Shown here: positions 2,871-39,705 of the stretch, piece after piece
Layout of the letters: every line of letters begins with the position of its first letter
How positions within the stretch are numbered: the stretch's first letter is position 1
From: Camelus dromedarius
Taxonomy: Eukaryota
Reading direction: 5' to 3'
Length of the DNA: 64,000 nucleotides
NCBI RefSeq assembly: GCF_036321535.1
Contig: NC_087436.1
Span: 55,926,001 to 55,990,000, forward strand
Notes under the pieces: model-generated
Told to the model about the DNA's origin: nothing
The model's input: the letters and a program-made list of their open reading frames with translations, nothing else
The model's database searches: none
Program-made: the position numbers and the translations under genes

Positions 2871-5800
2871 GAATTGTTGACAACTAGGCAATTTGAGCTT
2901 GTCCCACAAAAAACAGAGAGAGAGACAAGAATCACAGGTATTTGTATACACTATTAATGTATATAAATGGTGAGAGCTTAGAAGAAATGGACAATGCATC
3001 CATATTAACTGATACACCCCCATGTTTCAACAGACCTTGCAGTCTTTTTCCACCACTCTATGGCAAAAACGGCATACACTTTAAATTTTGGCAATCCAAA
3101 CAAATTACAATTTCACTATCATTTTGAGACATTTGAGACAAATTACCTATACAGGTATAAATATGTATGCATATAAATTTAGCATCCCTTTTGCCTTAAT
3201 AAGCAAACAGTTTAAATTCATAGCTTCTTAAATTGTTTTTCCATTAAGACCAACCGAATCAAGGCCCAAGTGTAAACATCATGATAGCAAAACAGGTCAA
3301 AAATTAAAAAAGAAAGGCCATTCTCTTTTGTTGTCAGTCCTGCTAAAATCTGTGGAGTCATGGGAAAATGGACGTCACATCACAACTCGTGTGGGAAAAT
3401 CACTTTCACAGGCTGAACCAATACTGGTAAAATTTTCCTAACCCTTTTTAATACTACCACTCTACACGCCTCCACCTTTTTAGGACCCATCATCCCAAGA
3501 GACTTCAATAAAATATGTTTAATTAGTATTCAAAAGTGAGAAATTGACTCCACCTTGGCACACAACTGACTTTAGGACTTTCTGTCCCCATCAAAATTGT
3601 TTACTAGAATAGCATCTGTAATAACTTGATTTTCTCCCAGAATTAGCCCACATATCTTCATACTTCACCTTCCTATTCAGAAAGTTTGGAGCTCTCAGCA
3701 TGAAATGACTTATGTGCTGTGGTTTACAGGAGGAATATGCACCAAGTAGGAGTTTTTGGATGGAAGAACTACTCTGAGAAGGTTTCTTAGTATGCTGCTA
3801 TACTTAAAGTCCACAGGCCCATATGGCCCCAACAATCTGTGTCTCTGCCCACATAGGAGCTCCCGATGTGCTTCAGAGTGTAGTCAAATGTTCCCTGAAA
3901 AACACACATATTTAGGACATTTATTAAAGTCCAAATAGTAAGAACAACCACAGAAGGGCTTATTAATGTAGTTCCTAATGGGTGTAACAGCTTTTTTCAC
4001 TTACAAAGGCTGCTGCTGAATCTTAAACCTGACTGAAATCCATGTCACGACTTTAAAACTCACTCTTTTTGCTAATAGTCTTCAAGGTTATTCTATGAAC
4101 ACTCCTTTTTAAGATTTTTCTAAACTCCACTCTCTGACCAAGGTAAGTTTTGGGATCCCCTTTTTCCTATTTTCTTTCTCTTGCTCTTTTCAAAATTGAA
4201 AAATAAATTTTACAGATTAGAAATGACTTAGTTTTTAAAAGCTTAATCTGGTTTTCCCAGGACATACAGCTAGTTAGTATCTGAGTCAGGAGCTCACACA
4301 TGACTGACAACAGAGCTTGAGCCATCATCACCATGCAGTTCTGGCTCCTGCGTCGTATTTGCCACAGGGGCATGACAGTGCCCAACAGAGATGAAAGAGG
4401 TGATTTGTGGTGGAAGTAATAAGAAATTAAGGGAGCACTCAGCAACAGTTGGGAGGAAAGGAAAGGATCACAGGAGAAAAATAATGAAATAATAGAGAAA
4501 TAAGGAAAGTGTCATGTAGTGTAATAAAATTTTGCATGTAAATGATAATATCTTTTGCCTCCAACATATCAAAGCATTTTGTTCATGTAAATTATCCAAC
4601 GGTCATACAACAATATTTATTAGTACTTACCACATTTCAGGTACTATTGTAGACACTGCTGACACCAAAACAAAGCCCTAGACTTCATAGATTTTCCATC
4701 GTAATGGGGCAGAGAAACTACAAGCAAAGGAATGAATGGATAGCTTAAATAACTTCAGGTGGCAAAGAATGGATCATGGTCAGGGAAGAAGGAATTATTG
4801 AACTATGCAAAATTATTGAATAGATGATTTAATTTATTTAACTATTGAATTAAAACTACTCAATTAATGCATCTAGTTGATTATTCTAATTCCAGTTCTA
4901 GCTTAAGCATCTAGTTCAAAAGCATCTAGTTTAAACAGCTAGTTCATTGTTGAATTAATGAACTTGATGCTGGTTCAGGTAGGCAGCTTCACTGAAGGAA
5001 TAACCTTTAAATATCACTTTGTTGTCATTATTATTCAGATACCACTTCTGGGAGGGAGAACAGGGGAGAGTGTTATTATTTTCCTAAGAGGACTTAGAGT
5101 ACCAGATCAGTAAAATGACTTGCCTACTTCATCATTGTAAAACCTGGAATGAAATAGAGAAGTTCAGAAATTCAACTTACTGTTAATAAACACGTTTGTT
5201 TGTTATATATGTTGTCTAATTTTCCCGTATTAGCTAGACAGGGCTTATACCATCATCCAAATTTTTTTCTGACTGAGGAAAGAATTATTAAGAAACTTAC
5301 CCCAGAGTCAGAGAGGAAAGGATCTGAGTCCGAGTAGAATTCAGTCCTCATACCTCTATTCCTGTGTTCTTACCACACAATCCAGTATCTCCCAATGAAG
5401 CAACAAGCTTCTAGTGTATATTGACTTGACCTTTCTCCCATAGTAATCTAAAGTAGTGGATATAGTTTGACAAGTTTCACTCACTCATCCACTCAAGTTT
5501 CTTAAAAAGAGCAGTGCTATTTTTCGGAGGAATATATGAACACATTTCTTATTGGTTTGTCATGTTCATCATTCATGAATATTTATTAATTTTTCTAGAG
5601 TTTTAGGTGTTTAGAAATCACAGATCCTTGTAAGAATCTGATGAAGGCCTTAAACACTCTCCCTAAATAAATGTATGCTTCTGAAAGTTCATAGGCACTT
5701 TGAAACATATTCTGGAACCCACTGGGGTCAATGGACCTCCAAATATAAAATTTTTGGTAAAGTGTGAACCCGTACCTCCCATAAAAGCAAGAAAAAAAAT

Positions 5801-6982
5801 TAGCCAGATGTCCTTATATATCTTCTGGGTTTTTTAATGAATTTAATGTCCGTTCAGACAAATGTTGATCAAAATTAAGTGAAGGGCAGACAGAAATGCA
5901 CACAATCTAGAGCAGAGTACCATAGGACCTGAGTCACCCAGACTTGGCTTGATTCTGTGATCTTTATACTCTTCAATATAATGCTTAATATCTTTTAGCT
6001 TAGTTTCCTCATCAATGAAATGTGAAAATTATTACTGAGCCTTTTAAATTAGATAATGTGTATCAGGTACCAAGGTCACTACCTGCACTCCATAATTGAT
6101 CATTATTTGGTTTCTTGTTAATGTTGTCATAGTGTTATGCCTGTGAATGAGTATTATGTCAGTACATTGCTGTACTTTAATGTGATAGAATTTTGACATA
6201 AGCCTCCGTTTGAGATGAAAAAATATTACTAAACAGAAAGTTCCAAAGTTGGCCAAGAGGAAAAACAAAAGACATGCTCAGAAGATGAACCTCTACACAT
6301 TGTACAGATATTTTGTAAGCACAAAATGCCATTTCATTGAAATAAGATATAATAAAACATAAAAATAATAGATGATATTTCAGTCTTTCATCTTACTTTA
6401 AAAATTTGTTCTGTAAGCAAAACACATTTATATGGATGAGATTTTAATTAGACACACATTCTATTAGCAGGATTATATCTCCAAATTTTGAAACATTATA
6501 CAATGGTAAAAAGAATTAACAAAAAGGAAAGAACACCTCCAAAATGTTTTCCAGTGCATCTGGGATATGCTAAACAACATCTGAACAAAGATAGCTGACT
6601 TTTCACTGCCCCCATTGATATGTTTGGATTTATCTATGAGAAGGTTGAGACAGTCGGTGTTTATATATTTGGATATATTTGTCTTAAATATTTACACTGT
6701 GCAAACTGCTTAAGCATTTTGAGGATGTTTTGTGAATTCTCATTAAGTTTTGGTTCAAATGAAATTTATTGGAAGTGTCAGCGTAAATGAAACCATTTGT
6801 TGACCAGAATGAGCCTTATATTATCAGGGTGATGGGAAGTAGGGAAGTGTGTAGATACAGATTTCATTTTTTTTTTTCATTTATAAAATGAGCTATAGCA
6901 GAGCTCGTCTAGTCACTGAGTGCTCACAACTCCTAAAAGGTGGCTGATATTTGTTTTACTCCCTCTGTTTTCATTGTAACTA

Positions 6983-21380: not shown

Positions 21381-21531
21381 GGGGAGGATATAGCTCAAGT
21401 GGGAGAGCACATGCCTAGCATGCACAAGGTCCTGGGTTCAATCCCCAGTACCTCCTCTAAAAATAAATAAATAAACCTATTTACCTCCCTCTCAGAAAAA
21501 AAAAAAAAGAGGTAGTATTCACTTAAAAAAA
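21381..21531 (+). mobile_element. tRNA-derived SINE, Vic-1-like (camelid)
   Basis: GGGGAGGATATAGCTCAAGTGGGAGAGC (A box) ... GGGTTCAATCCCCAGTACCTCC (B box), AAAT-repeat tail and polyA. 14-bp TSD AAGATGT(T/C)TTCAGA at 21367-21380 and 21532-21545. Confidence 0.88.
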
Positions 21532-30200: not shown

Positions 30201-30927
30201 GAGTTCCATTGTTATATTTATGGAAGTCCTTCTCCTATGAGCATGTGGTTTGTAACAATTATGTGGTCTGGCTGGCCCTCTGAGTATTCACCGATGTTAG
30301 TTTGTTCTCCATTTCCTTCTTTTGCATGGGCCGAGGACATACATTCAACAATTAAATCTTCCAAATGCTAGTGAAAATTACACAACTTGAGGATGCTTGG
30401 TATTCAGATTTGCTGGAGAACTAGCTGGTCTTTGAATAATTAAACCAAAGTTAGTCAACTCACATTCTTTGCTATTATTTTCTTTTCCTATTTCAGGTAT
30501 AAGTCTCCTTGTCTGGGAGAAGTTTTGTTGTTGTTGTTAGGGTTTTTTTTGGTTTTGTTTTTTTCACTTATGCATATGTTTCATTTAGTGAGAATTGAGA
30601 GTAGATAGACTTTTTAAGAGTTCAGTAAAGTTTTTTCCTTCTACTGTTTGGGGGATAGGGCATTCTTTTTGCTTTTTAGGACAAATTTCCATTTTTGTTT
30701 CATGGAAGAAGGCTGTTAGCACCAAAAGCGGGCTCTTGTGACCCAGTGGGGTGGATGTCAACTATTAAAAGGCAAATACATTAAAAAGGTCATATGCCTT
30801 CAATGAGTTATTATGAAAGATTTGTATCTTTGGATTTTTTTTCCTGAAGACATTGTCTCTTATTCTGAAAGAAAAGTCAAATGGAACATCAATTTTCCTC
30901 TTTTAGACAATGCCAAATATAAAGTAT

Positions 30928-31357
30928 TGTCAGCCTGAGGGAGGCTGATGTGGGTTTCGAGGAGGTGAGCGGCCCAAACGAAAAAATGCATGAGGAGTTG
31001 CCATACTGCCGGACAGACTTCAGCCAGAGACACCATGGGGTTAACAACACTTTATTGCCACAGGAAGGTGCACGCCTATGATGCACCTGCCCTGCTTTTA
31101 TCTGTTTTCCTGTCAGCACATGCGCGGTCTGAGTTTCTTTGTTCATTAGGCTTACAGAGTATCTCTAGCACATGCGTACTTCTATTTTCTTTGTTCTAAA
31201 TCTTATATAATTGATGCACGCGTGGAGCAATTATTTACTGCATACCACAAACACGCTCTGTAGTCGTGGCCTTGGGTCCCACAGCCTTAACTTATCTCAA
31301 GGCTCTGGCTGTGGCCTTGGGTCCCACGGCCTTAACTCATCTCAAGGCCAGCTCACA
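30928..31357 (-). repeat. 3' LTR (430 bp)
   Basis: Direct repeat of 37323-37747 (by eye about 15 substitutions and 4 small indels). Preceded by the PPT. TATA-like motif at about 31203-31209 and AATAAA at 31051-31056 (minus). Confidence 0.96.
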
Positions 31358-31368
31358 TTTTACCCCTT
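31358..31368 (-). promoter_or_regulatory. Polypurine tract
   Basis: AAGGGGTAAAA directly before the TG of the 3' LTR, resembling the AAGGGGT-type PPT of ERVL elements. Confidence 0.85.
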
Positions 31369-32521
31369 AGGTCGTGGGGACCTTAGCCCACAGGGCGGAG
31401 CATTGTGCCCAAAGACCACAACAACAATACAGAGTACAGCATCCTACTAATACGCAGACAGCAACAATAGCCAGGACAGTTAGGCTCCATCTCTAGGAGG
31501 ACATCAAGGATGACCACCAATTCTTAAGGGGGTCTTGCGTTATATAATCTATACCATCCAATTCCTGATCTATTTCATGCAGTGCCTTAGCTATTTCCTT
31601 CTGGTGATGTGGTATATAGATACAACATTCAATATGTAACATAGCATATGTGCCACCCTGGCTTACAGTGAGAATATCTAATGCCATGCTATTTTGTAAG
31701 ACTATCTTTCGCATCTGGGTAGTCTCGTCTAACAATTTCTCTATAGCTCTTCTAGTAACATTTAGTACAGCTGATACGTGCTGAGCCAAAGCTTCTACCT
31801 GCAATTCTACATTGATGGTCCCAGCACCAGGCAGGAACAGGGCCATGGGATAAAACCATCAAGCTGCACGCTTCCCCCAGTGCCACCGGGTGTGCAGTGG
31901 GTTCCAGTTTGTGGGGCTCTCTGTTAAAGTGGGCCGGATATGTCCGGGCAAGTAAGCTTTACCCCAAGTACAGCACCCTGCCCATTTAGTTGGGAGATAA
32001 GACCATCTGTGGGTGCCGTATACCCACAGATACCCTGGTGGCAGGAAATCAGTGGGTTTTGTGCCAATTAGAGGTCGTCCATCCCACCAGGTGGAGGCAT
32101 TTACATTATAAGTAATTTTGGCACATAGCTCTTCTGGGAGCCACCCCATTGTGCGATTTGGAGCCTCGTGTTCAAATCGCTGTTCCATACAGAGGGGGCT
32201 TAAATTTCTCACTTTTACATGAACACTATTCATTTATTCCCACCCATTACATACCGTCTTTCTAATTGGGTGGGGAGGGGGGGACTGCCCTGCTCATGTG
32301 GGAGTATTTCTTCAATAGTCTGCTGCCGCAAGTCCCAGGGCGATCTCTCTGTCCTGTTGGCATTCCATCGAATCAAGGTGCTCCAATTAGCTCTGGACGC
32401 GGGGTGGAGGTGCCATGGCAGTTCAGTATCTATGGGAAGTTCAGTATAGACCCAACAGTGAGAGACGTTGTGGACTCACGCGAATGTGTGTGCCCAGGAG
32501 AACATGGTATTTGCTGTTACC
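31367..32521 (-). pseudogene. env: env (gamma-type, compact; SU about 217 aa, TM about 166 aa), interrupted
   Basis: SU NVSHCWVY (CXXC position), WGKR furin site at about 31868, fusion peptide, immunosuppressive domain LQNSMALDILTVSQGG, [C>Y]X6CC, membrane span LTVLAIVAVCVLVG and a Cys-rich tail. TAA at 31367-31369. One frameshift near 32280 and several stops. Confidence 0.92.
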
Positions 32522-35500
32522 CTGGATGGAAGGACAGAGCAGAGGTGGACACCATGATTGGTAAATTTCTCCCTTCTGGGAGGATGCAAGCCACTTTCTC
32601 ATCCTGTGAGAGTACAGTGGCAGGAAGTGCTGTTCACCCTGGGCGGTGGTACCATACCAACCTGCCCACACTAGATTGGTTACATTCTGGGAGAGCTTCA
32701 GGAGCTATCAGTGGAATTGCCCAAAGCCGTAGGGCTTCTGCTCCTTTAAGTAGGGACATTCCTGTTTTCCTTAGAGTAACCTGCATATCAAAAGGTCATG
32801 CCCTCACTCTTGGGGTTACCTGCAGGGCTTTCTCTAGCCCATTGCCCCATGGTTCCAAAAGGGCTAGCCAGGGGCCTTCAGTCTGGACCTGATTCTTCTA
32901 TGCCTAGGTGTCCTGTTTTCCTGAGTTTAATACCCTGGGGGCATGTAATATTAACGTATGCCCCATTATTGAGACATCGGAGGCATCCTGCACAGGCCCA
33001 ACTTTGAGCCTCTGAATAGTCCCTTGCAATAATTTTTCCAGTGGGCTCATACCTGTATGGCGAGGTTGTTCATTCAAAAGATGTACCGCCTGCGGCAAGA
33101 CATTGTTCCAGCCTCGCCCTTGTGGTTTGAGAGCCCTCAGTTTGTCCTTTAATAGGCCATTGTACCGTTCAATCATTCCTGCTGCTTGAGGACGGTAAGG
33201 CACATGCAATATCCAATTAATATCATTTTCTTTGGCCCATTCTTGGGTCTGTTGGGCAGTGAAAGGGGTCCCTCTATCATTTTGTATTTCTAAGGGAGTC
33301 CCATAGAAGGCCTGTAAAACTTCCAGTGCTCTAATAGTAGAGTCTTGTGTAGCTCAGGGCACATGGTGAGCAAAACCTAGACCAGTAGCGGTGTCTACCA
33401 CTGTCAGCAGGTACCGCAAGCCCGTACTCGGAGCAAAGGGGCCTATGTAATCTATTTGCCATACCTGCAATGGCTGAATTCCCCATGCAATCTTCCCCAT
33501 CTGTTGGGGTCATTGCCGCCGGTGTGGGTGGTACTTAGCATACCATGGACATTGCCGCATGGCATCTTTGGCTTCACTGTGGCTCAGGTGCAGGCCCCAC
33601 CGGTCGGCTACCTGCCTCATTGTGTATGAGCCAACATGACCAAGTTTCTTATGGAGCCAGGGACCTATATTGGGTCCTGGGACCATAGTCTGTACAGGGT
33701 GGAGTTGGGCTAGCGCATCAGCAGCATCATTGCCCAGTGCCAGGGCTGGGTGGTGCCCTGGTACGTGGTAAACAGTATATTGGCCTTCTTGGCCTTTTTC
33801 CTATAACTGTTTCCACATCTGTTGTCCCCATAGGGGCCAGTGCCCAATCATCCAGTCTTGCAGGTCCCATTGGGGTATCCACAGTGTAAGGCCTCAATAT
33901 ATGGCCCAACTATCTGTACAAATCTGCAAGGGGCTGGGTTCATTCATCAACACCAGCCATACTGCCCATAACTCAGCCCATTGGCTGGATTGGCCTTCTC
34001 TGGTCTCATACCAGAAGGCTTCAGTGGCAGGGTGCAGTGCTATTGCAACCCAAGTGGACGGACTGCCCTTACAAGATCCATTAGTATACCAAGCAGTTCC
34101 TGGGGGTGGCCCTTTCCCTTCATGAAAGGGACTGGGCACAGGGTCCACCCCTTGTTGTGGGAGCATCTGTACATCAGGCGCAACAAATTTCATAGGCCCT
34201 AACACCTGCTGCAACTCTGCAGCCAAGGGGCTAATGGTGTACTGGGCTCTCTGTTCCAAATAAGCACCCTACTTCGTCAGAGTTGGGGTTTGGGCAGTTC
34301 CCGATCAGGGTTGCTTTGCCCATGTCTGTACCCATCCTGCAATAGGGTATGTGGTCTGCACTTGGACCTCTTGCTTCCCCGTCAGGGGTTCAATGGCAAT
34401 CAAGGATACATAAGTTGCTAGCAACTGTTTCTCAGAGAATAACGACATTTAGCCCCTTTCCACAACTGAGACCGGAATCTTATGGGCACTTTCCGCTGCC
34501 CATGTTTCTGTCATAGCCCCAGCCATATCCATCATTGTCCACATGAACTGTCAACCAGAAAGGAAGGTCTGGATCTATAGTGCGCAGTGCTTGCGCTTGG
34601 GCCATTGCCCTCAACAAATGCACATTCGGTCTCATCAGACCAATTCTAGGCTTCTCCCTTTTTAATCAGTTTATACAGTGGTTTGGCTATTTGGGCCAAA
34701 TGAGGAATAAGCACCTGCCAGTATCCCAGAAGACCTAAATAAGTCTGTAACTGTTTAACTGTTTCAGGGCAGGAATATGCCTGGATTTTGTCTATTACTG
34801 CTTCAGGCAGCACTTTTGTCTTACCCAATCAGACAACACCCAAGAGTTTGACAGAATAGCCAGGTCCTTGCACTTTGTCCTCGTTCACGGTCCACCTCCA
34901 GCCCGCCAGGGCTTCTCGCAGCGCTGTGGCACTGGTTTCCAAATCTGAAAGAGAATCAGAGGTTAGCATTATGTCATCAATATAATGGAACCAGCGAACG
35001 GTATCCGGTTTTCTCCACGTAGCCAGGTCCTGGGCCACCAGGCCATGACACAGTGTGGGGCTGTGCAGATATCCCTGTGGCAACACAACAAATGTCCATT
35101 GTCTGCCTCCCCAGGTGAAGGCAAACTGTTCTTGGCTCTCAGGGGCTATGTCTATCGAGAAGACTGCATTAGCCAGTTCAACCACATAGTGACAAGTACC
35201 CAGTTCATGAGACAGCCAGTCCATCAAATCTGTTATATTCGGTACAGCTGCATGCATGGGGGGAGTGACTTTATTTAGTTCCCGATAGTCCACTGTCATC
35301 CTCTAGGAGACATCTGGCTTCCGCACTGGCCATACTGGAGAGTTATATGGGCTATGCGTAGCCCGAATTATACTGGCTTCCTCAAGCTTCAGGATAGTCT
35401 GTCCTATTTCCTCATGGCCACCAGGCAATCGATATTGCTGGATATTCACCACTCATGTGGCCTGTGGCAAAATCAAAGGTGCATGATGAGGATGCCCCTG

Positions 35501-35883
35501 TATAATTGTTTTCATCATGTGGACTCTGAGGTGAAATTGCCCTTGAGTGGTCTGTATTTGCAATCCTTGCAAAATGTTTATCCCCAGAATGTATTCAGCA
35601 TATACTGGGGTATATGCACCTCATATGCAGCAGGGGGCAGATGGCCAATGCCCAAAATTAGAGTCACTCGTTTAACATACATTTGCTTGTTTCCATATCC
35701 TTCTATATCAACCCATGGTCCCTGAAAACGCTCCGTATTTCCATGCACCAATGTAATTTCAGCTCCTGTGTCTACTAGTGCCAGCACTCGCTGTTTATTC
35801 ATGGGGGACCAGTGAATAGTCAGTTCAACATGTGGCCACCGGTCACCAGGGTGCCCCACGTCCCGAACACCTTGGTTTTCCTC
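32517..35883 (-). pseudogene. pol: pro-pol (protease, RT, RNase H, integrase), interrupted by stops and at least two frameshifts
   Basis: Protease [25 protein letters not shown] and YIDD (34973-34984). RNase H WYTNGS, AEL and TDSW. Integrase HKKLGH...CPWY, WQIDYIGP, QNDRG and IERYNGLLK, with a C-terminal GRLVWYHRPG domain. TAA at 32517-32519. Confidence 0.95.
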
Positions 35884-37254
35884 CTAGTCTGGGAGGAAAT
35901 CAGCAAAGGCCACCTCTTGGGCCTGATGGGAGGTTGGCAATGGAGTGTATTGTTGCTCAGGCCGTAATTTCTTCCATAAAGCCATCAGCACCTCCAATGG
36001 CTGGCCATCTAATTTCACACAGTCCAGGCCAGCTGCCAGTAAATCATATCATATCTGACAGTGATCTAGCTTTTGAGGCCCTCCTAAAATTGGAGCATTC
36101 CCCTTTTTCCTCCTCTGTGTGGACTTTCCTTTCTGCGTCACTGCATGGGAGGAGAGGGTCTTGGATTCACCTTGAGTCTTGGCAGTATGTACCCCCTTTC
36201 AGTGCACCTCTATGTCCCCCAGATGAGCTAGAGCCTCAGTTACTTCATGAATGGGGCGGTCTACATATGGTGCTAGTAGCGCCGCCATAGTCCCAAACGT
36301 TCCCGTTGGGCCATTAGCCAAAATCAAATCTTTCATTCGAGCTGTTAGGAGCTCATCATCTGGACTATGGAAATGCAAAGAAAACATCATCTGGCTCATG
36401 CCCATTTCCTGGACAACTTGTGCTAAGTCCAAATACGTGGTCCATTTACTCATGTGTTCAGGCAAATCCCCTGCATTTTCCCACATAGTGCGTACAGCAG
36501 CCATTAACCAGCTTATCAGCGTATGGTTGCCAGCATCAGCATTTGACTGGGGAATAGTTTGCAGTCTCTGCCGCAGTGAGGGGACAGTTGTTATGTTGGC
36601 CAGCTGGCCCATCTCCTTCGGAGATAGCTCGGTCTGGTCAGCCTTATCATCCCAAAGGCACAGTAGCCATGTGGGGATTGACTCACCCATACACTGCTTG
36701 CATTGCTTCGCCAGGTCTCTCAATTCCATTGATGTGTAGGATGTATAGGTGGTTTGTCATGTCACTCACCGTGGCCCTGCAGGAATTCCCCCCTGAGCCA
36801 TGGGCTCCTCCATTTCTATCCGCTGACTCACCATTGGCCGTAGATGCAGTGGAATGGGGGGAGGGGTCGGGCTTATTGTTCCCAGGGGTGGTGGGACTGG
36901 AGCTACACAGGCATAGTTGCTCTCAGAGGCAGCGGAGTTAGGACCACGTAGACATCTTTCTGCTGTGCTGGGTCTCTGCTTAAGTTCCTCTTCTTTGCAT
37001 TGCAACTCCTCCACTTGCATCTGTAAATCTCTCATGTCTTGGCTAGCATGCTGTAAAACAGATAAGAACATCCAGACCACCCTCCTGGCTGCCTCTTGGT
37101 GGGCTAATGGGACATTATTTTCTAACAGCTCCAACGCCCTATGGATGTCATCTGGCCGGGTCGCCATTGTGTCCGAATCCTCAGGTTGAGCCTACGTCAG
37201 CAAATAGGCTGCCATTGGGTACCATACAGAGGTAGGGGGCCAGTTTGCTTCCAT
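35884..37254 (-). pseudogene. gag: gag (456 codons, single frame, five premature stops)
   Basis: MEANWPPTSVWYPMAAYLLT..., coiled-coil stretch, YTSMELRDLAKQC...WLLCLWD, and QI*YDLLAAG...LDGQPLEVLMALWKKL, typical of class III Gag. No CCHC zinc finger. Stops at 37192, 36766, 36757, 36199 and 36049, with the natural TAG at 35884-35886. Confidence 0.88.
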
Positions 37255-37302
37255 TAGAGCATTCCCGTCAGGGGCGGGGGGTTTAGAGGGGGCGTTCACC
37301 TC

Positions 37303-37320
37303 ATCCTGCCGACTACGCCA
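37303..37320 (-). promoter_or_regulatory. Primer-binding site, tRNA-Ser
   Basis: TGGCGTAGTCGGCAGGAT is complementary to the 3' end of mammalian tRNA-Ser (...ATCCTGCCGACTACGCCA). It lies 2 nt after the 5' LTR. Confidence 0.93.
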
Positions 37321-37322
37321 GG

Positions 37323-37747
37323 TGTCAGCTGAGGGAGGCTGATGTGGGGTTCTAGGAGATGCGGCCCAAACGAAACAATGCACGAGGAGTTGCCATACTG
37401 CTGGACAGACTTCAGCCAGAGACACCATGGGGTTAACAACACTTTTTTGCACAGGAAGGTGTGTGCCTATGATGCACCTGTCCTGCTTTTATCTGTTTTC
37501 TGTCAGCACATGCGCGGTCTGAGTTTCTTTGTTCATTAGGCTTACAGAGTATCTCTAGCACATGCGTACTTCTATTTTCTTTGTTCTAAATCTTATATAA
37601 TTGATGCACGCGTGGAGCAATTATTTACTGCATACCACAAACACACTCTGTAGTCGTGGCCTTGGGTCCCACAGCCTTAACTTATCTCAAGGCTCTGGCT
37701 GTGGCCTTGGATGCCATGGCCTTAACTCATCTCAAGGCCAGCTCACA
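37323..37747 (-). repeat. 5' LTR (425 bp)
   Basis: Begins TGTGAGC and ends CTGACA on the minus strand, followed by CC and the PBS. TATA-like TATATAA at about 37593-37599. The polyA-signal position reads AAAAAA (37443-37448). Confidence 0.96.
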
Positions 37748-39705
37748 AGTATGTTTTCCAATTCATTATATTTTTAAAAGACTGCAAAAGTATATGGCAT
37801 AAAGAACTGAGAAACCTATCACTCCTTAGTTCAAAGTTTCTTGTCTGATGATCCTACCTGAGGTAAGCTTTTCTAAGGTGAAGATGTGCTTCAGCTCTGG
37901 GTAACTTGTAACTAATACTGAACACAAAATCCCAGGAAGTAATGTGGCTTTTACAATCCATCAAAAAGAAAAAGCTGGATGCTTGCACTAAAATAGTCAA
38001 TGCTTATGATACAATTCACTCTGAACATCTAGAAAGAAAGGGAGGGAAAGTGGGAAGAAGGGAAGAAAGAAGGAAAGAAGAGAGGGACAGGAGAAAGAAA
38101 TTAATCTTGATTTGGAGTTCCATGTAATGGGATTATGATATTGTAAAGTAAATGTACAGAGTAATTAAGACTTTGGCAATTTGATTTTTTTGCAGAGCTA
38201 GGTGACATTTAAAAGCTTACATGTAAATTGTTACATGTAAATTTTCTGGATGGGAGTTTTTATGTTCTATCTCTGAACACATTTTTCCCCAGAAATTCTA
38301 ATATGACTTCAATTTTGTCCTCTAAGAGCCTCTAAGCAACTGAAGTTAGGTGAAAGTTTTGTTAGGAAAACCTCAATAGCTCAGATACCTTCATTACTCA
38401 CCTGGAAATATTAGCTTAATTTTGCATAAAACAGAGTTTGGACTAGGATTAGCTTAGCCTAGTAAGATTTGATGCTTTAGATATTGGTAGGAAAACTTGG
38501 GATTTTTCTTTTTTTTAAGTCTATAGTCAAACTATAGTCCTTTGTACTATTCAGAAGAAAAGGGCAAAGACACAGACATAAAAATTAAAATGATATTACA
38601 AGGGAAAGAAAGGAAGGGAGTGGTTCCATAGTGATGCTAAAAGATACAAGGTTTTCAAAATAGAGAAATAAGCATTCCTAAAATTACTTTTGGAAAAAGG
38701 AGAAAGGACAACCCTAATGCATTCAATAGAATAACACAAGTGTATAAAGTAGGGGCTCTTTTGTCAGTACCAGGCCTTATGTCCTTACAGTTGGGAACCA
38801 GGTTGGGGATTTATTTTTCTTTTCAGACAGCTGGAATTTGACTCTGATAAGGCAGATAGAAATGATCATGAGAATCAGCACTCTTCTCAGGGCACTTTCC
38901 AAATGTATAACTGAAGCAGGAATGGAGGAACAAGAAAAAGCAGAAAAGCATTTTCACCGCACTATTACCATGAAGGCTCTACTCATATATTCTATTTGTA
39001 AATCATGTTTCATGTAATCTTCAAAAAGCCAATCATAAAATGACTAATACACAAGAGATGGTCTCTTACAGCTTAAGTAGATGATACCTAAAACTCTGGA
39101 CAGCACTATAATTTAAACACATGGATTGGGGAGCAGCTTCTAGCATTAGAATGTTAAATTTAGCAGGATGTTTAATATATGCATGATGCCTTAATCAACC
39201 AATCATACTGAAACAATACTAAAGAAGAAACTGCAGAACTTGTAAGCATCAACTAAAGTGTATCACATTAAGGAATTTCCTTTTCTCTTCTTCCTGTATA
39301 CCAACACATTCAAACAGTTCTGGGTGGTCTCACCCAGTGGCCAATATGTTATGTCTATAGAGGGCAGCTATACCCAGATCTTGTTTCACCTACACTGTTA
39401 TTTCCTTACTTGCACCATCCTCCATTAAAGTGAACTAGGTCTTCAAGGAAGGTGTTTGAAAAGAGATTTGGAGGTAGTAAAAGAGGAAGAAAGGGGCAGA
39501 AAATTCCGGTTGCTCTCATACATATGAAAAAATAATAGAAAACCAAGAATCCAGGATATAGTAACTCCCCTGACAGGACATGATATATAGAGGATTTAAA
39601 ATAAACAGCACAGTAATTATAATTCTGTAATAAATAGAAATTGTTACATAATTATTTTTGAAATTATTTGGAATATGTTGAGTCTACCAGAAGAGATATG
39701 TGCAT

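Follow-up and report, generated by a model that had tools for sequence, protein, structure and literature searches.

A coding-dead provirus with a class III-type reverse transcriptase and a PABLB-like gamma-type envelope in the dromedary genome

Structure of the provirus

The 64,000 nt stretch of the dromedary genome analysed here (Camelus dromedarius, assembly GCF_036321535.1, contig NC_087436.1, positions 55,926,001 to 55,990,000 of the forward strand; hereafter the window, from whose first letter coordinates are counted) holds an endogenous retrovirus (ERV), i.e. a provirus of 6820 nt on the minus strand at 30928-37747, which was delimited by a direct-repeat scan and by direct reading. The scan returned two long direct repeats spaced about 6390 nt apart, every long open reading frame (ORF) that has retroviral content is on the minus strand, and the element has a G+C content of 49-50 % vs 28-38 % in the surrounding DNA. 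Its layout is long terminal repeat (LTR), primer-binding site (PBS) for tRNA-Ser, gag, pro, pol, env, polypurine tract (PPT) and LTR, within a 5 bp target-site duplication (TSD). We are confident that this provirus is complete in outline and coding-dead, that its reverse transcriptase (RT) groups with class III elements of the ERV-L/ERV-S type, that its envelope is of the PABLB-like gamma type, and that it likely entered the germ line 8-16 million years (My) ago.

Read along the minus strand, the element runs from TGTGAGC at 37747 to GCTGACA at 30928 and is flanked by ATACT on both sides, i.e. at 37748..37752 on the 5' side and, as an identical copy, at 30923..30927 on the 3' side. An earlier interpretation made from the letters alone (the sequence-only reading) had placed a provirus with two LTRs, a PPT and a 5 bp TSD within 6820 bp, and its coordinates proved exact. 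The 5' LTR (37323..37747, minus strand, 425 nt) has TGT..ACA ends, TATATAA at 37593-37599 and a mutated AATAAA; the 3' LTR (30928..31357, minus strand, 430 nt) carries TATATAA at 31203-31209 and AATAAA at 31051-31056, so that TATATAA is found in both LTRs and an intact AATAAA in the 3' LTR only. The two are identical at 410 of the 425 aligned positions; the 15 substitutions comprise 10 transitions and 5 transversions, and 4 indel events were counted besides. The resulting divergence, i.e. p = 3.53 % and a Kimura two-parameter (K2P) distance of 3.63 %, bears out the difference of about 3.5 % that had been counted by eye.

At the U3 start of both LTRs (37648-37737 and 31258-31347) there are two diverged 45 nt units which are alike at 36 of 45 positions. 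Many other copies of the same family match as if they held a single unit, and one locus (G000:C16:31771053-31771281) holds at least four in tandem. These units look like a variable number of enhancer-like repeats; Tandem Repeats Finder reported no tandem repeats, although the LTR holds the two diverged units.

The PBS TGGCGTAGTCGGCAGGAT (37303..37320, minus strand, 18 nt) starts 2 nt past the 5' LTR and was identified by direct reading and by comparison with the tRNA genes of the host. The CCA end of a tRNA is added after transcription. The complement of TGGCGTAGTCGGCAGGAT corresponds to the 3' end of the host tRNA-Ser(AGA/TGA) genes, which terminate in ATCCTGCCGACTACG, the type matching this provirus, while the host tRNA-Ser CGA genes terminate in ATCCTGCTCACAGCG, which corresponds to a second PBS type found, e.g., in the family copies L011, L012 and L020. 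When the host genome was searched with the reverse complements of this PBS and of the second variant in one merged query, 43 matches were obtained; ARAGORN was run on 9 of the 30 listed loci and found in eight of them a tRNA-Ser gene with its 3' end at the PBS match, while the ninth showed no tRNA there. The perfect serine PBS of the sequence-only reading is therefore matched by the host's own genes, and considering that both variants correspond to host tRNA-Ser 3' ends, the family uses two serine isoacceptors.

The PPT AAGGGGTAAAA (31358..31368, minus strand, direct reading) adjoins the 3' LTR and overlaps the env stop codon; most other copies read AGGGGGTGGAA at this position. The junction between the 3' LTR and its flank is bridged without a single difference by a contig of an independent DNA run, and the locus is present to the same extent in 14 DNA runs of the same organism from at least eight studies.

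Coding regions and their decay

The gag gene (35884..37167, minus strand) extends from an ATG at nt 581 of the provirus to a TAG at nt 1862. It is followed past this TAG, in the same frame, by the protease (PR) region with LVDTGA (35597..35883, minus strand). Of 20 other family copies, 18 also have a stop at this position, and a conserved purine-rich context starting with G follows it. The pol gene (32637..35596, minus strand, with an uncertain 3' end) contains the RT (34835-35326; Pfam RVT_1, with DYRELN and YIDD), RNase H (33705-34097; Pfam) and the integrase (IN) core (33189-33476; Pfam rve, with D,D35E), all on the minus strand. The envelope gene is short (about 410 codons) and consists of a surface (SU) part (31868..32598, minus strand), with GKR ahead of the fusion peptide, and a transmembrane (TM) part (31367..31867, minus strand) with the fusion peptide WFYPMALFLPGAG, a motif resembling the immunosuppressive domain (ISD), a Y-x6-CC site, a membrane span and a short tail.

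When eight translated segments were searched against Pfam, three of them gave the matches RVT_1, RNase_H, rve and TLV_coat, and the gag-pro segment gave none. Neither pol nor any of the three sense frames from the IN core to env gave a match to dUTPase (PF00692), and the Cys-His knuckle (C-x2-C-x3-5-H-x4-5-C) is absent from all sense frames of the whole provirus. Accordingly, the YIDD motif and the lack of a zinc finger in the sequence-only reading both stand.

This copy is coding-dead, with every reading frame broken. There are about 25 in-frame premature stops across gag, pol and env, all of them TGA or TAG and none TAA. In gag, four TGA codons are found at provirus nt 980, 989, 1547 and 1697, and when compared with 20 other copies the gene has no frame-changing indel of its own, as had been claimed. 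Frame-changing indels private to this copy were located near provirus nt 2137, 3136 and 3230; since PR to RT is one frame in other copies, the frame change between them is a lesion here and not a programmed shift. Env is interrupted by a stop at nt 5270 and changes frame within a length-variable indel hot spot at nt 5465-5480, and the TM part has stops at nt 5887 and 6253, ahead of the native TAA at nt 6379, which is a stop in 19 of 20 copies. The ratio of observed to expected CpG is 0.32, which fits decay by CpG transitions. The genes are thus all present in outline, as the sequence-only reading had it, but they are interrupted by these stops and frame-changing indels.

Class of the core

The closest full-length pols are those of a galliform cluster (P0001, with members named from Gallus, Lagopus and Numida), showing 63 % and, in Phasianus, 60 % identity over the 324 aa RT query; by tblastn the same pols share 56 % and 53 % over a 396 aa RT stretch. 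Next come pols from lungfish, amphibians, fish and turtle (41-49 % identity), many of which have a dUTPase. Shorter relatives were found in bats (65-68 %), pangolin (69 %), mole (70 %), armadillo (60 %) and Camelus ferus (87 %). All four pols of the second kind that were scanned (P0005, P0009, P0010 and P0013) show the Pfam order RT-RNaseH-IN-dUTPase, i.e. the ERV-L arrangement, and Pfam detected no dUTPase in the bird relatives P0001 and P0002.

In a first, quick RT tree of 48 rows (without P0020, P0034, P0035, P0038 and P0039, which were too short), the camel family is sister to the bird clade (support 98), and the pair joins a clade with all seven dUTPase-bearing pols (94). A second, careful maximum-likelihood (ML) tree of 51 rows, from which P0333 (too short) and five near-duplicate rows had been removed, includes five mammal rows, while the row P0012_Pelobates is a frog. 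Here the provirus and four family copies (92/86) fall within a mole/bat/pangolin clade (98/80), which together with the galliform ERVs and the armadillo row forms a 14-row clade (100/98), itself nested in a 33-row clade (97/97) with all six dUTPase-bearing pols. The class I and class II references lie outside the 33-row clade, and the quick tree agrees. Class I references were defined by an MLV-type integrase C-terminus (MLVIN_C; MLV, murine leukaemia virus) and class II references by a dUTPase upstream of PR-RT; the loci dropped as references were L021 and L022 (an IN-like part, no RT), L033, L034 and L038 (no RT match) and L027, L029 and L030 (dUTPase only).

The gag gene points the same way. 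Its 367 HMMER relatives include two proteins named 'Friend virus susceptibility protein 1-like' (Fv1-like; E 7e-13 and 1.7e-11), names that are automatic; few of the relatives are named at all, and those that are also include camel, alpaca and bat proteins. In an AlphaFold model (mean predicted local distance difference test score 70), residues 13-72 form a long N-terminal helix, where a coiled coil is predicted, and a confident helical core lies at about residues 150-330. With Foldseek, all 11 best rows for this model were retroviral capsids, at weak scores (best E 0.037). A search of the ESM Atlas returned no usable match, and when representative chains were compared by VIA-align, nothing beyond the N-terminal coiled coil was matched, with Z of about 6 or less.

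Could the whole provirus instead be class I, i.e. gammaretrovirus-like, and have been misread as class III? The best sequence match of the RT in the PDB is the RT of MLV and the related XMRV, the envelope is TLV_coat- and syncytin-like, and the gag UAG is in frame with pro, all of which would fit a gammaretrovirus. Against this stand the position of the RT with the dUTPase-bearing ERV-L-type pols, away from the loci linked to MLVIN_C, and the approximately unbiased (AU) test, in which a tree uniting the family with class I as one clade cost 42.8 log-likelihood units and was rejected (p = 0.0057). Neither Gag_p30 nor MLVIN_C was matched by Pfam, there is no zinc knuckle, and the gag relatives are Fv1-like. 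The target-site duplication of MLV is 4 bp. In the camel family a 5 bp TSD with at most one mismatch was read in 16 of 19 loci, ten of them perfect, and 5 bp is described as characteristic of ERV-L (PMC8278194; here and below, published systems are cited from excerpts of the sources). We therefore regard a class I origin of the whole element as extremely improbable; raw RT scores alone, which favour MLV, would mislead on the class.

Two further assignments were considered and rejected. A class II (betaretrovirus-like) core is excluded because there is neither a dUTPase nor a knuckle, gag and pro share one frame, and the RT matches those of HERV-K and human immunodeficiency virus (HIV) far more weakly than those of MLV or foamy virus; the ML tree also places it elsewhere, and the AU test is not decisive. 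For a spumaretrovirus proper, no foamy-specific family was matched by Pfam in the eight translated segments, and the envelope is gamma-type.

Several results weigh against the class III assignment. The PDB match of the RT to MLV/XMRV RT (6e-35) is better than that to foamy PR-RT (3e-27), and the AU test does not reject a single clade of the family with class II (p = 0.119, at a cost of 16.4 log-likelihood units), so that of the RT phylogeny proposed by the sequence-only reading the separation from class I stood and that from class II did not gain the same statistical backing. The class I and II references of the trees are loci of the same genome picked by their Pfam hallmarks, and the trees hold no labelled HERV-S, HERV-L, MuERV-L or foamy sequence. 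Gag has no Pfam or PDB sequence match, either alone or as a 16-row profile, and strict regular expressions for the IN HHCC motif and the gag major homology region fail in this copy. On balance, the RT trees, the AU rejection of class I, the Fv1-like gag relatives, the lack of a dUTPase, the serine PBS and the 5 bp TSDs uphold the class III, ERV-S-like core that had been claimed.

The camel family and its age

The ORFs of the family match proteins named from C. dromedarius, C. bactrianus and C. ferus exactly or nearly, with relatives from Vicugna pacos, in agreement with the camelid host supposed from the letters. When the genome (2.31 Gb) was searched, 40 candidates were obtained with the env probe, 49 with the RT probe and 38 with the gag probe, and 33 other loci hold most of the env probe at 79-94 % identity. 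For the LTR probe 40 of 262 first-look candidates were scored; among these, 28 of the 38 other near-full matches (88-93 % identical) have no internal match nearby and are solo LTRs. Altogether this genome contains about 40 internal copies of the family along with numerous solo LTRs. Copies cluster on contig C13 (about ten internal matches at 34-45 Mb) and on C37, a contig of 114 Mb that may be the X chromosome.

Twenty copies were fetched, 18 of which gave LTR pairs; L003 (wrong repeat pair) and L008 (shortened 3' LTR) were left out of the dating. Over 19 loci the K2P distance between LTRs ranges from 0.82 to 18.6 %, three of the fetched copies lying at or below the 3.63 % of the provirus studied here. 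No copy out of 21 has an uninterrupted pol. At substitution rates of 2.2e-9 and 1.1e-9 per site per year, a distance of 3.63 % corresponds to about 8 My and about 16 My, respectively; these rates are assumed values, and gene conversion between LTRs is possible, both of which make the age less secure. The provirus is younger than human HERV-S, in whose supergroup (HSERVIII) LTR divergences of 13-42 % are given in excerpts of PMC4724089, and in this comparison the description of the element as comparatively young holds.

Two of the copies, L001 (G000:C1:4034400-4041700) and L002 (G000:C20:38231800-38239100), share 99.2 % identity across 7.3 kb, a stretch that takes in the flanks and the TSD CTCAG, and their own LTRs differ by only 0.8-1.4 %. 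Since the identity extends into the flanks, they represent one insertion that was copied by segmental duplication between two chromosome ends or in the assembly. Many copies carry one of two recurrent gag deletions (nt 316-827 and about 434-735 of the probe). As each of these is common to several proviruses, the gag-deleted variants were themselves amplified, presumably with help in trans.

It is tempting to speculate that infection of the camel germ line by an ERV-S-type virus (class III core, PABL-type gamma envelope) went on into the last 2-8 My, far later than the primate HERV-S relics; we regard this as a tentative and rather doubtful proposal. If true, no younger class III lineage with an env would be known from mammals, and copies that are unfixed or less decayed could still be segregating among camelids.

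The envelope and its history

The TM part matches the Pfam family TLV_coat (9.9e-8) and, in the PDB, syncytin-2 (5.6e-8), syncytin-1, the TM of MLV and filovirus GP2. Only four database proteins matched env, one of them weakly. Identity is highest (79 %) with an alpaca gene model listed by NCBI as 'endogenous retrovirus group PABLB member 1 Env polyprotein-like', followed by a dromedary protein (76 %) and an intact sloth PABLB Env of 426 aa (41 %). By homology the envelope is therefore classified as gamma-type and PABLB-like. The site homologous to CXXC reads CWVY at 32446-32457, as it does in the alpaca model P0121, whereas the intact sloth relative reads CWVC; at the CX6CC site (31622-31699 from the ISD through Y-x6-CC) the first cysteine is a tyrosine, where the sloth protein has C-x6-CC. 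The sloth envelope holds CWVC, RIKR, an ISD and CX6CC, and the camel family presumably once had the CXXC motif, lost in this copy. Of the gamma-type hallmarks read from the letters, the homology and the ISD-like LQNSMALDILTVSQGG in the TM part are thus present, but CXXC and CX6CC are each one cysteine short in this copy.

Three alpaca and camel gene models named 'PABLB member 1 Env polyprotein-like' (P0121, P0312 and P0314) align in three pieces to L010 and to this provirus, i.e. to the LTR leader just past the PBS, to a short stretch in the RT region and to env. These models look like spliced transcripts of this ERV family and not like a class I PABL gene, so that camelid gene models of this name can be explained as pieces of such proviruses.

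The class I name of the envelope raises the question of whether the camelid lineage acquired env in a recent, independent capture, by local env snatching, and did not inherit it together with the ERV-S backbone. Env swapping has been reported as especially common in class III ERVs (excerpts of PMC4724089), and the name assigned by NCBI comes from the class I group PABLB. However, the oldest sampled copies (L013, L017 and L018, with LTR K2P distances of 11-19 %) already carry the same env, and their identities to the provirus fall in parallel, i.e. 89, 85 and 84 % in RT and 84, 83 and 79 % in env, respectively. As these oldest copies bear the same env and the serine PBS, the pairing of core and envelope is old in this lineage. 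Moreover, human HERVS is likewise reported to have a PABL/PRIMA41-like envelope (PMC4724089, compared by its description), and the pairing therefore looks older than the camelids. A recent capture is thus improbable, and an envelope inherited along with the core is the reading we prefer.

The median pairwise ratio of non-synonymous to synonymous substitutions (dN/dS) was lower in frame than in a control read in the +1 frame for RT (0.45 vs 0.63), RNase H-IN (0.52 vs 0.71), gag (0.54 vs 0.67) and env SU2+TM (0.49 vs 0.71); L002 was left out of the pairs as a duplicate of L001. These values are a modest sign, which suggests that env was under selection like pol during the spread of the family. 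PR does not conform, giving 0.63 in frame vs 0.49 in the +1 frame and hence no selection signal, and the force of all these ratios is reduced by pairs that are non-independent and by a control that itself lies well below 1. The retention of env in most copies, together with a dN/dS deficit in env like that of RT and IN, suggests a spread by reinfection and not by purely intracellular retrotransposition.

RNA-seq signal over the locus

It was also considered whether the locus, or close copies of it, are transcribed or co-opted in reproductive tissue, be it through an LTR promoter or an env-derived gene. About one third of the sampled words occur in two RNA-seq runs labelled as reproductive system, contigs of these runs extend over most of the element, and camel gene models of NCBI splice an LTR leader to env. 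Yet the ratio of internal to flank depth is about 10 in the RNA runs, not above that of the DNA run (about 6-12), and the unique flank is covered in the RNA runs as well (X15-X17 over 30400-37300). Most of the RNA contigs are only 95-99 % alike to the provirus and hence derive from other copies, and all frames of this copy are broken. The RNA signal is explained by DNA carry-over or by a family-wide background and gives no evidence of transcription of the locus, which leaves co-option very improbable and the coding-dead provirus as the reading to keep.

Proposed replication of the ancestral virus

When active, the ancestral virus would have been transcribed from a start downstream of the U3 TATATAA to an end at the AATAAA of the 3' LTR. 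Synthesis of minus-strand DNA would have been primed by host tRNA-Ser at the PBS and that of the plus strand by the PPT. The predicted Gag would combine a coiled-coil N-terminus with a capsid-like helical core and no Cys-His knuckle, and Gag-Pro-Pol probably arose when ribosomes read through the conserved UAG in frame, a mechanism published for XtERV-S and gammaretroviruses. The integrase would have made 5 bp staggered cuts. Env was probably translated from a spliced RNA and cleaved after a basic site, its subunits probably being held together by the CXXC/CX6CC disulfide that gamma-type envelopes typically have. For read-through, for splicing and for the disulfide bond, the proposal is drawn from relatives.

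Other features

The only Rfam match in the window is a tRNA-like sequence at 21384-21456 on the plus strand (38.2 bits), which may be a tRNA gene, a pseudogene or the head of a short interspersed element. Among the loci dropped as tree references, L021 (G000:C26:21903500-21910500) and L022 (C26:18749500-18756500) contain ORFs of 931 and 854 aa, respectively, with an integrase-like part, an MLV-type IN C-terminal domain and no detectable RT; these may be domesticated, integrase-derived host genes.

Comparison with known systems

ERV-L elements are primed by tRNA-Leu, in contrast to the serine PBS of the camel provirus. Otherwise, HERV-L and MuERV-L share with it the class III RT clade, the 5 bp TSD, YIDD and an Fv1-related gag without a zinc knuckle; they differ in that mammalian ERV-L are described as lacking env and as having a dUTPase after IN (excerpts of PMC4724089 and PMC8278194), whereas the camel provirus has an env and no dUTPase. 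Mammalian ERV-S, on the other hand, have been characterized by env sequences and no dUTPase (PMC8278194).

Among the closest described systems is HERV-S, which takes its name from its serine PBS. According to the excerpts of PMC4724089 (Vargiu 2016), HERVS (HERV18/LTR18) is a class III group without dUTPase or zinc fingers, its class I envelope has PRIMA41, PABL and HERV1_ARTIODACT as relatives, its Pol falls into a cluster with an avian ERVL, and every env met there in class III was class I-like; the result on the HERVS envelope is repeated in a 2025 preprint (10.1101/2024.10.28.620668, likewise in excerpt). Compared with this published description, the camel family is alike in its serine PBS, its class III pol without dUTPase, its gag without zinc fingers and its class I-type, PABL-like Env, and as avian ERVL lie near the HERVS Pol, so galliform ERVs are the nearest non-mammalian relatives of the camel family. 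The difference lies in LTR divergence, i.e. 0.8-18.6 % in the camel family vs the 13-42 % of the human supergroup.

XtERV-S of Xenopus tropicalis (PMC8278194, Yedavalli 2021, in excerpt) resembles the provirus in its serine PBS, TGT..ACA ends, class III gag-pol with YIDD and without a Cys-His box, in-frame gag stop and gamma-like TM, the latter with CXXC, a furin site and an ISD. It differs in being intact and longer (8.0 kb), in having a dUTPase and an extra ORF in pol, and in an SU described as unrelated to known viruses. The Xenopus pol P0008 falls into a different RT subclade from the camel family in the 51-row tree.

The galliform group P0001 (Gallus, Lagopus, Numida, Phasianus and Meleagris) has the same domain order without dUTPase and belongs to the same 14-row clade; it is possibly the AviERVIII/GGERVL18 of the literature. 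With PABL-type class I envelopes the provirus shares the homology of env, while PABL elements are class I in gag-pol (PMC4724089) and the camel backbone is class III; the PABLB names are automatic. With regard to camelids, the excerpts of a transposable element survey (PMC8605555) list ERVL in bulk, including one well-supported alpaca ERVL cluster, and contain no description of an ERV-S family; a literature search on camelid ERVs gave nothing more specific.

The sequence-only reading had presented the union of a class III gag/pol with a gamma-type env as unusual. Since HERV-S (PMC4724089) and XtERV-S (PMC8278194) have already been published with a serine PBS and with a class III core joined to a class I envelope, the combination is not unusual, and the known build of such viruses is unchanged by the camel provirus. 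What is new is at most the camelid family itself and its youth; the provirus is likely a new family member, and its kind of virus was known before. The ERV-S side of class III, which has been little studied, thereby gains a camelid branch that has relatives in bats, mole, pangolin and armadillo. The plan of a class III core and a class I envelope thus multiplied in one mammal far later than it did in primates.

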